In this document: positions 28,668 through 29,123 of the stretch, in pieces | Numbering within the stretch: the stretch's first letter is position 1 | How the letters are laid out: the number at the start of each line of letters is the position of its first letter | Source of the DNA: Escherichia coli | GTDB taxonomy: Bacteria > Pseudomonadota > Gammaproteobacteria > Enterobacterales > Enterobacteriaceae | Direction: 5' to 3' (one strand) | DNA: 31,720 nucleotides | NCBI RefSeq assembly: GCF_003334385.1 | Contig: NZ_QOWN01000053.1 | Program-made: the position numbers and the translations under genes | Notes under the pieces: generated by a model | Databases searched by the model: none | Told to the model about the DNA's origin: nothing | Seen by the model: the letters and a program-made list of their open reading frames with translations, nothing else

Positions 28668-28889
28668 AAATTCACTCTCCTTACGGGGTTTGTAGTTGAG
28701 GAGTTCTCCACGGGTGAGGTGGAGATCGTGCGCCGGACACGGGTGAGTTCCTGCACTCTCAGTTTACTGAACAGACATTACCCTGAAAGCCAGGGTACTA
28801 CACGAAAGCGCGAGGCGAAGACTCTTTCCCATAGAAGGATTGTCGTTAGATTTCTTCGACCGTGCGCTTCCGGTTGTGAATAACAACAT

Positions 28890-28950
28890 TGCTGTGTGTA
28901 ACCCTTGGCGGATATCGGTTTGCCGATTGCTGATGTCCGCCCTTTTTAAA
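28890..28950 (+). ncRNA. DicF-like small RNA candidate, ending in an intrinsic terminator
   Basis: TTGGCGGATATCGGTTTGCCGATTGCTGATGTCCGCCCTTTTT resembles the 3' half of E. coli DicF (TTGGCGGTATCAG...TGCCGCCCTTTTT) as recalled; GGCGGA/TCCGCC stem plus T5; inside a 430-bp region with no credible ORF. Confidence 0.4.
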
Positions 28951-29123
28951 GTGAATTTTGTGATGCGGTGAATGCGGCTATGCGCACGCGGAACAGTTAA
29001 ACCGACAGGATGTCACGGAAAGTCATCGTCCCCTGACCCGGCGTTAGTTGTTAACTGGTTAACGTCACCTGGAGGCACCAGGCACCGCATCAACAAAGTT
29101 CATTTGTGAAAATGGAGATAATT

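Follow-up and report, generated by a model that had tools for sequence, protein, structure and literature searches.

A predicted KilS-type small RNA with an RprA-identical seed in the dicF slot of an Escherichia coli lambdoid prophage

The 456-bp gap at positions 28668-29123 of a 31,720-nucleotide stretch of Escherichia coli DNA (contig NZ_QOWN01000053.1; the whole stretch is called the window here) appears to encode a small RNA (sRNA) of the KilS family on the plus strand at 28856-28947, in the slot that dicF takes in K-12 and upstream of the cell-division inhibitor gene kil. By alignment, the closest known RNA is KilS of the K-12 Rac prophage, not DicF, and the window allele reads as an unannotated KilS variant. 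Its seed is identical over 13 nucleotides (nt) to the seed of the host sRNA RprA. Together with the release from the early-left transcript and the action on RprA targets proposed below, we regard this reading as fairly probable. What the analysis shows is homology with both KilS and the dicF cassette, the RNA structures, the RprA seed identity, and the complementarity to csgD and yncL.

KilS is a 98-nt noncoding RNA of the K-12 Rac prophage (b4833, annotated in RefSeq) that lies in the kilR 5' untranslated region (5'UTR) (Bar et al. 2021, PMC8175672). It was predicted from RNA interaction by ligation and sequencing (RIL-seq) on Hfq and verified by northern blotting, with a proposed transcription start of its own and yncL as the reported partner (PMC8175672). 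The window RNA matches KilS at 77 of 86 aligned nt, including 39 of 44 in the arm. Arm and seed are alike in the two RNAs, and the window RNA also lies in a kil 5'UTR, directly upstream of a conserved leader. Both window flanks are homologous to the Rac sieB-kilS-kilR region as well as to the K-12 dicF region. The hairpin is a different module, with GGCGGAUAUCGGUUUGCCGAUUGCUGAUGUCCGCC in the window versus GGCGGCAUCAGUUUUUUUCUUGAAGUUCGGCUGAUGUCCGCC in KilS, and the linker after the seed reads AACCCUU in the window versus GUCCU in KilS.

The window RNA is laid out like a KilS-type RNA: a structured 5' part leads into an A-rich single-stranded arm, which is followed by the seed, a terminator hairpin, and a U-tail. 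Its 5' end at 28856 comes from the alignment alone and may be off by a few nucleotides. The intrinsic terminator (28907-28947, plus strand) consists of a 13-bp stem pairing 28907-28919 with 28929-28941, a 9-nt loop (UUGCCGAUU, 28920-28928), a C at 28942, and UUUUU at 28943-28947. For the 93-nt RNA, the computed folding energy is -30.6 kcal/mol (z = -3.54), a value that all 200 shuffles failed to reach, and the terminator hairpin is found in both the minimum free energy and the centroid structures. These values bear out the strong plus-strand terminator ending near 28947 that a preliminary description of the gap had read from the letters. The consensus terminator scan of the window failed to report the hairpin ending at 28947, presumably because the scan allows loops of at most 8 nt and the loop here has 9 nt. 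Other alleles preserve the terminator stem through paired changes, e.g., GGAUAUCAG...CUGAUAUCC, and the hairpin is, judged from its sequence, a variant form of that in DicF and KilS. Three A-R-N triplets can be read immediately 5' of the seed (AAUAACAAC, 28879-28887, plus strand); the ARN motif rule for the distal face of Hfq has been summarized (PMC5861431), and AAUAACAAC is a candidate contact for that face. AUUGCUG, the first seven bases of the seed, is repeated at 28926-28932 in the terminator loop and 3' arm, and AUUGCUGG is present in the hairpin loop of several other alleles. The second AUUGCUG copy could be a further pairing site or a by-product of module shuffling.

The seed AUUGCUGUGUGUA (28888-28900, plus strand) consists of 13 consecutive nt identical to RprA nt 60-72, and flanking GUGAA..AACAAC positions agree as well. 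In K-12 KilS, the identity reaches 16 consecutive nt (RprA nt 60-75) and, over a wider block, 25 of 26 nt. A single copy of the 13-mer is present in the window, where 0.01 occurrences are expected by chance. Thus, 13 of the 16 nt of the conserved RprA seed AUUGCUGUGUGUAGUC are kept as one exact block. The Rfam alignments to RprA are weak (22.4 bits, E = 5.2, for the window and 28.1 bits for Rac, against a gathering score of 70) and are driven by the seed identity block. Processed RprA comprises the last 47 nt of the RNA, occurs alongside full-length RprA, and has activity in vivo (PMC9262595); it therefore starts at the shared seed block. The literature searched contained no paper naming RprA and KilS together, and the paper defining KilS (PMC8175672) names neither RprA nor DicF, so the link between the KilS-type seed and RprA is apparently unreported. 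Activation of rpoS, another function of RprA, was considered and rejected by hand comparison of the RprA-rpoS pairing (nt 35-44 and nt 54-61), which was worked out from the sequences: RprA nt 35-44, GGAAAUCCCC, has no counterpart in the window RNA, and only AACAACAUU of AACGAAUU is kept.

The shared seed leads to defined target predictions. The csgD 5'UTR is fully complementary to RprA nt 60-74 at -98 to -84 (15 bp), and the window arm pairs there with 14 contiguous bp at -96 to -83 (-21.3 kcal/mol), with KilS forming 16 bp at the same site. In 1000 dinucleotide shuffles of the arm, this energy was never reached, and values of about -10 kcal/mol were obtained with DicF and with the reverse complement. 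The csgD stem-loop SL1 extends from -83 to -28, and a review puts the upstream site of RprA there (PMC4152358); the site predicted here adjoins SL1. On yncL, RprA, KilS, and the window RNA all form the same 12-bp helix at +106 to +117, just after the stop codon (-17.3 kcal/mol), an energy reached by 1 of 1000 shuffles. yncL is the RIL-seq partner of KilS and also stands in the list of RprA targets common to TRIC-seq and RIL-seq, which includes csgD. The shared seed explains yncL as a common partner of K-12 KilS and RprA. ftsA, which is in the same RprA list, was examined as a shared RprA/KilS target and set aside, as no convincing seed helix was found in ftsQ-ftsA-ftsZ; a 12-bp match within ftsA is peculiar to K-12 KilS and is formed by non-seed bases that are absent from the window.

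An identical seed could also serve interference with RprA in place of mimicry. The sRNA would then shift the output of Rcs and RprA, either by competing with RprA for its targets or by titrating a sponge or Hfq. A site directly behind the stop codon, as on yncL, is unusual for translational control and fits a sponge-type interaction, and processed RprA affects narP indirectly, for which its authors consider a sponge (PMC9262595). However, this explanation is purely inferential, and the perfect 14-bp csgD match predicts direct action at least as readily. We therefore hold a decoy role to be quite improbable and favor the KilS-family sRNA acting directly on RprA targets.

The relation to DicF was decided by synteny and alignment, not by the score on the DicF model. 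The preliminary description had proposed a DicF-like sRNA, to be checked by a covariance search. No DicF match was found anywhere in the window at the Rfam gathering threshold; a permissive local scan returned 28893-28942 with 29.2 bits (E = 2.4e-4), below the gathering score of 48, so the search came out negative at the curated threshold and positive at the permissive one. As controls, K-12 DicF scored 76.7 bits and K-12 KilS 39.1 bits on the same model, and KilS-type RNAs would accordingly be classed, on sequence grounds, as DicF relatives not captured by Rfam. Compared with the K-12 ydfC-dicF-dicB region, ~200 nt upstream and the stretch from CCGCCCUUUUU down to the next gene are near-identical, whereas the sRNA body is replaced and ~110 nt of the K-12 precursor region are missing. 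Near-identical flanks around a replaced body explain the intermediate DicF score. The location is that of the conserved cassette, with small early-left open reading frames (ORFs), shared flanks, and a division-inhibitor gene. By these alignments, the locus appears homologous to the dicF locus and the RNA a different allele. The likeness of the stem and flanks to the 3' half of DicF, as first described, is thus borne out by the K-12 alignment and the sub-threshold model match, and so is the difference in the 5' seed region. An sRNA-type element does occupy the dicF slot, but its membership in the DicF family is not supported (29.2 versus 48 bits, with the DicF arm and the ACUCCG motif absent). 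Faubladier and Bouché reportedly described dicF-related prophage sequences in 1994, and a likeness of Rac to dicF was probably recorded there already, as DNA hybridization and sequence similarity.

If the RNA nevertheless acted as a member of the DicF family, it would be antisense to the ftsZ ribosome-binding site, block division, and reinforce Kil. DicF pairs with this site via its 3' part, and its 5' arm serves pairing with xylR and pykA (PMC5069750). Alignment and motif search showed the DicF 5' arm UUUCUGGUGAC to be absent from the window allele. In DicF, the pairing with ftsZ, derived here from the sequences, joins loop AGUUUUACUCCG with CGGAGAGAAACU; the loop motif ACUCCG, which pairs with the ftsZ Shine-Dalgarno region, was also absent from the window allele in the motif search. 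The only remaining complementarity is CCGAUU in the loop with AAUCGG at ftsZ -14 to -9. The best local duplex of the window RNA with the ftsZ ribosome-binding site (-10.9 kcal/mol) was no better than shuffles (fraction 0.63), a weak argument either way, since true DicF reached only 0.31. Duplex energy was dropped as evidence because it produced long spurious whole-length duplexes and could not separate DicF from shuffles, and the ftsZ question was judged by motif presence or absence instead. The shared slot and flanks, the hairpin match of 29.2 bits, the FtsZ inhibitor gene downstream as with dicB, the short CCGAUU complementarity, and the loop complementarity retained in K-12 KilS speak for an ftsZ antisense. 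The sub-threshold score, the missing 5' arm and ACUCCG loop, and the much better alignment to KilS speak against it. A DicF-like action of the window allele on ftsZ is thus unlikely as far as its motifs indicate, and we give membership in the DicF family very little credence. As a separate observation, the K-12 KilS loop AGUUUUUUUCU (4432-4450, minus strand, of the extracted Rac locus L004) complements the ftsZ ribosome-binding site GGAGAGAAACU over 11 bp, including 3 G-U pairs, and this segment is lost in the window allele. From its sequence, K-12 KilS might touch ftsZ as well as RprA targets.

Natural variation at the slot bears on whether the seed or only the structure matters. Viral contigs were scanned for the invariant downstream motif AAAGTGAATTTTGTGATG, which yielded 120 loci with 55 distinct 75-nt upstream alleles. 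In these alleles, several hairpin modules are combined with a small set of 5' arms, which comprises the DicF type, the KilS type, and at least two more. The arm type tracks the downstream gene: 40 of 46 KilS arms precede kil, and 41 of 44 DicF arms precede dicB. Among 48 KilS-type copies, UGCUGUGUGUA is almost invariant, followed by at least six hairpin types. A near-invariant block joined to varied hairpins is the pattern expected if selection acts on the seed, as the aligned alleles would suggest. Natural recombinants of a KilS/RprA-type arm with a DicF-type hairpin (ACUCCG loop) were observed in 7 instances, all upstream of kil, e.g., allele GUAAAUAACGACAUUGCUAUGUGUAGUCUUUGGCGGCAUCAGUUCUACUCCGUGGCUGCCCUGCCGCCCC (viral loci L005-L124); such recombinants would carry both pairing regions in one RNA.

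The window allele itself is a minority form. Of 5,426 complete E. coli genomes, 64 carry it at ≥95% identity, among them the O104:H4 outbreak strain C227-11, and it is also present in isolated or inducible phages (PhiR5_2 and an Stx1c phage); NCCP15648 and FORC_069 are further carriers. No annotation lies under the window allele in any record among the matches listed from the complete genomes, since it escapes the DicF model and Rfam offers none for KilS. A wider genome survey used the pattern TTGCTGTGTGTAN{3,8}GGCGG over 298 Gb, for which ~200 chance matches are expected; only Enterobacterales matches are interpretable among those listed, and we make no distribution claim. Copies of UUGCUGUGUGUAGUCUU(U)GGCGG were observed, among the matches listed, in Citrobacter, Pseudocitrobacter, Superficieibacter, Erwinia, Trabulsiella, Mixta, Izhakiella, Rahnella, Prodigiosinella, and Pectobacterium (loci L132, L137, L148, L157, L162, L163, L178, L180, L189, L210, and L211). 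Some copies are followed by a hairpin and U-tail; others run into genes, encoding a 123-aa MSNDRMTVVPDF... protein or a 174-aa MNNYAF...DDLPDEGV... protein.

The same variation can be read as punctuation in cis, in which an N-sensitive terminator and processing signals gate kil and the recombination genes and no trans role exists. nutL and N lie upstream, and expression of kilR in Rac depends on read-through controlled by NusG and Rho (PMC10798246). Additionally, hairpins are interchangeable among alleles, as expected if only structure matters, and other genera have the block in 5' leaders without a terminator. This explanation leaves unexplained the near-invariant, single-stranded block of 13-16 nt located 5' of differing hairpins, its identity to the RprA seed, and the Hfq-associated chimeras of KilS with yncL, an RprA target. 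We consider a purely cis function unlikely. We also put forward, tentatively and as a possibility short of an even chance, that the dicF slot of enterobacterial lambdoid prophages is a modular sRNA cassette in which constant flanks enclose reshuffled seeds and hairpins, and that its KilS arm is a captured copy or ancient relative of the RprA seed, delivering an RprA-like signal when the early-left operon fires or when a lapse of Rho/NusG control permits read-through.

The sRNA is embedded in two structured flanks. The conserved noncoding upstream segment (28668-28855, plus strand) is shared with the K-12 Qin ydfC-dicF interval, near-identical over ~200 nt in the alignment. Within it, 28705-28711 pairs with 28719-28725 in a 7-bp hairpin (loop GGGUGAG), and a long irregular helix ends in CGACCGUGCGCUU. 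The ~190 nt upstream are moderately structured (-75.6 kcal/mol, z = -2.24; 2 of 200 shuffles did equally well), and this segment is, as its fold would suggest, probably a precursor or processing structure. In K-12, the RNase III cut that yields the 190-nt DicF precursor lies at the break of homology between the window and K-12, and an internal promoter was not found in Qin (10.1101/2023.04.14.536235).

The kil leader (28948-29123, plus strand) is still more structured, as indicated by its fold, helix coordinates, and relatives. Its 176 nt fold at -62.9 kcal/mol (z = -3.88), which none of 200 shuffles matches. A basal helix of 27 bp (28944-28970 with 29083-29111) closes a multi-hairpin domain that includes the inner hairpin CCUGG-AGGCA-CCAGG at 29068-29082 and stops just before the kil Shine-Dalgarno sequence GGAG (29114-29117). 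Across 75 distinct relatives, the basal helix is retained, mostly via G-U changes; in Rac-type sequences, compensatory changes are seen in the inner hairpin. When RNase III processes the read-through transcript of K-12, a 72-nt DicF results that is ~19 nt longer than the terminated form (PMC5069750), so the cut falls within the basal helix of the leader. By analogy, the 27-bp helix of the window is probably an RNase III site that separates the sRNA from the kil mRNA. The leaders also gave sub-threshold matches to STnc100 (window 31, Qin 34.1, and Rac 28 bits; gathering score 47) that are significant and recur in three independent leaders; the K-12 spans are 4447-4587 in the extracted Qin locus (L002) and 4223-4409 on the minus strand in Rac (L004). 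At 31 versus 47 bits and with no 3' terminator, the window leader falls outside the STnc100 family. In the kil/dicB leader, the STnc100/PasD fold may have a third relative, one that serves as an mRNA leader and not as an sRNA. The alternative of a put-like processive antiterminator found no support along the Rfam route: HK022 24-38 kb, which contains putL and putR, gave no STnc100 or other Rfam match at E ≤ 1.

From these features we infer expression, processing sites, Hfq dependence, and target regulation of the window allele as follows. Without N, transcripts from pL or from read-through in the lysogen would end at the 28947 terminator. N-modified RNA polymerase should read through this terminator, and RNase III would then probably cut the 27-bp leader helix, freeing the sRNA from the kil mRNA. 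RNase E probably trims between the AC and the AUU at the start of the seed, which would leave a ~60-nt form (28888-28947) resembling processed RprA, beginning with AUUGCUGUGUGUA and continuing into the hairpin and U-tail. With Hfq, the seed would pair with host mRNAs of part of the RprA regulon, for which the upstream site of csgD and yncL are the clearest candidates, and pairing with csgD would repress this curli and biofilm regulator. The division block would come from the Kil protein, not from the sRNA acting on ftsZ. The read-through controlled by NusG and Rho could also supply the sRNA in the lysogen.

Several points weigh against this proposal. The sigma-70 promoter scan found no site just upstream of the sRNA, and the upstream segment is Qin-like rather than Rac-like, so that the context of the proposed KilS start is not conserved. 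Both observations make processing from the operon transcript likelier than transcription from an own promoter, and a lysogen may therefore make little of the sRNA. In the full-length fold, only ~40% of the seed is unpaired. csgD and yncL were selected for being RprA targets and were not found blind. Because the window reads AACCC just after the seed, where RprA and KilS read GUC, its csgD helix is 1-2 bp shorter. A second csgD site, overlapping the Shine-Dalgarno sequence, is also required by RprA (PMC4152358), and no such site was found for the window RNA. In other Enterobacterales, the block lies in prophage-like regions with other genes downstream and sometimes no terminator, and these terminator-less copies make a cis role possible instead of, or besides, a trans role.

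The gap belongs to an E. coli lambdoid prophage that looks intact and carries N and nutL; 451 bases around it are 100% identical to several complete E. coli chromosomes. Gene calls were taken from the Prokaryotic Genome Annotation Pipeline (PGAP) annotation of an identical E. coli record and from a mechanical ORF list. In the PGAP copy, the plus-strand order is repressor, N-like gene, small ORFs, the 456-bp gap, and kil, followed by a hypothetical gene, RecE, Gam, Bet, Exo, and integrase. The cI-like S24 repressor of the early-left operon lies at 25982-26689. Upstream of the N gene, 27247-27286 (plus strand) contains boxA (GCTCTTTAAC, 27247-27256) and the boxB hairpin TCTCAAC-CTAACC-GTTGAGA (27267-27286), both read from the sequence, which we take to be those of a lambdoid nutL site. 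The N-like antiterminator gene (27397-27702, plus strand; ORF translation and PGAP coding sequence) encodes an arginine-rich motif, GTAKSRYKARREELIAERR, presumably of the phage-21 N type. kil (29124-29345, plus strand; PGAP and ORF list) encodes a Rac-type Kil protein of 73 aa, an FtsZ inhibitor. The parallel with the dicB operon drawn in the preliminary description holds in its repressor, small ORFs, sRNA, and FtsZ inhibitor, with Kil instead of DicB.

That description had also called the gap ORF-free and the only long noncoding stretch of the operon. At 456 bp, it is indeed the longest in the plus-strand early-left operon and has no coding sequence annotated by PGAP in the identical record, but noncoding stretches of 345 bp (pL/nutL) and 210 bp also occur, and mechanical ORFs are present in the gap region (28581-28883, 28840-28971, and 28972-29109; none annotated). 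A coding reading of the gap was rejected, as these ORFs are unannotated and the alignment of the leader among relatives has indels that are not multiples of three. The left edge of the gap coincides exactly with the start of a minus-strand 69-aa ORF (28458-28667; hypothetical in PGAP), which overlaps the plus-strand ORF 28130-28489 at the latter's end. The promoter of this minus-strand ORF is expected within the first ~100 bp of the gap, opposite the sRNA precursor. Elsewhere in the window, two full-length STnc100 copies (RF02076) stand in tandem at 15693-15902 and 16178-16371 (both minus strand; 129.9 and 138.7 bits), between a Q-like ORF (16912-17538, minus) and a nanS/SASA-esterase ORF (13488-15491, minus). 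This site is the leader of the late operon, the place that stx takes in Stx phages. A C4 antisense RNA (20009-20093, minus; 66 bits) lies beside isrK (20119-20196, minus; 69.2 bits), a pair that forms a P1/P7 immI-like and Gifsy-like antirepressor control module in a lambdoid prophage.

As an Hfq-type sRNA gene of a prophage, the element is a real but ordinary kind of feature and is best filed under the KilS/DicF-slot family. Lowering the DicF threshold in annotation pipelines would wrongly predict a regulator of ftsZ here. The value added by the analysis is the link to the RprA seed, with its sharp, testable prediction on csgD. Seed identity with processed RprA ties an early operon of a prophage to the curli, biofilm, and envelope-stress network of the host. 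If the proposal is true, the early operon would repress csgD and curli and act on yncL and other RprA targets while Kil blocks division, an RprA-like signal independent of the Rcs envelope-stress pathway. The mosaic alleles, including the recombinants of KilS arm and DicF hairpin, offer a natural series for the study of target change in horizontally acquired sRNAs.

Compared with known systems, the window RNA shares with KilS the seed core UGCUGUGUGUA, the U-tail, the downstream leader, and the position before kil. With DicF (RF00039) it has in common the cassette slot, the homologous flanks, and a related hairpin, GGCGG...CCGCCCUUUUU, as well as a structured leader followed by a cell-division inhibitor gene, and its maturation would probably be DicF-like, the 3' end being set by the terminator or RNase III and the 5' end by RNase E. 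Unlike DicF, it has an unrelated 5' arm, a loop without ACUCCG, and kil rather than dicB downstream. The kil leader and STnc100/PasD (RF02076) both have a long closing helix, GGUG.../...CACC, and a hairpin with an AGGCA loop; in contrast to STnc100, the leader has no terminator of its own and continues into the ribosome-binding site of kil or dicB. The layout shared with RprA (RF00034) consists of seed, short linker, terminator hairpin, and U-tail. Overall, the window RNA is no RprA homologue, with 22.4 versus 70 bits and without the 5' stem-loops of RprA, and the RprA region that pairs with hdeD and narP (~nt 31-48) lies outside the shared block. Whereas RprA is regulated by Rcs, the window RNA is prophage-borne and under phage control.

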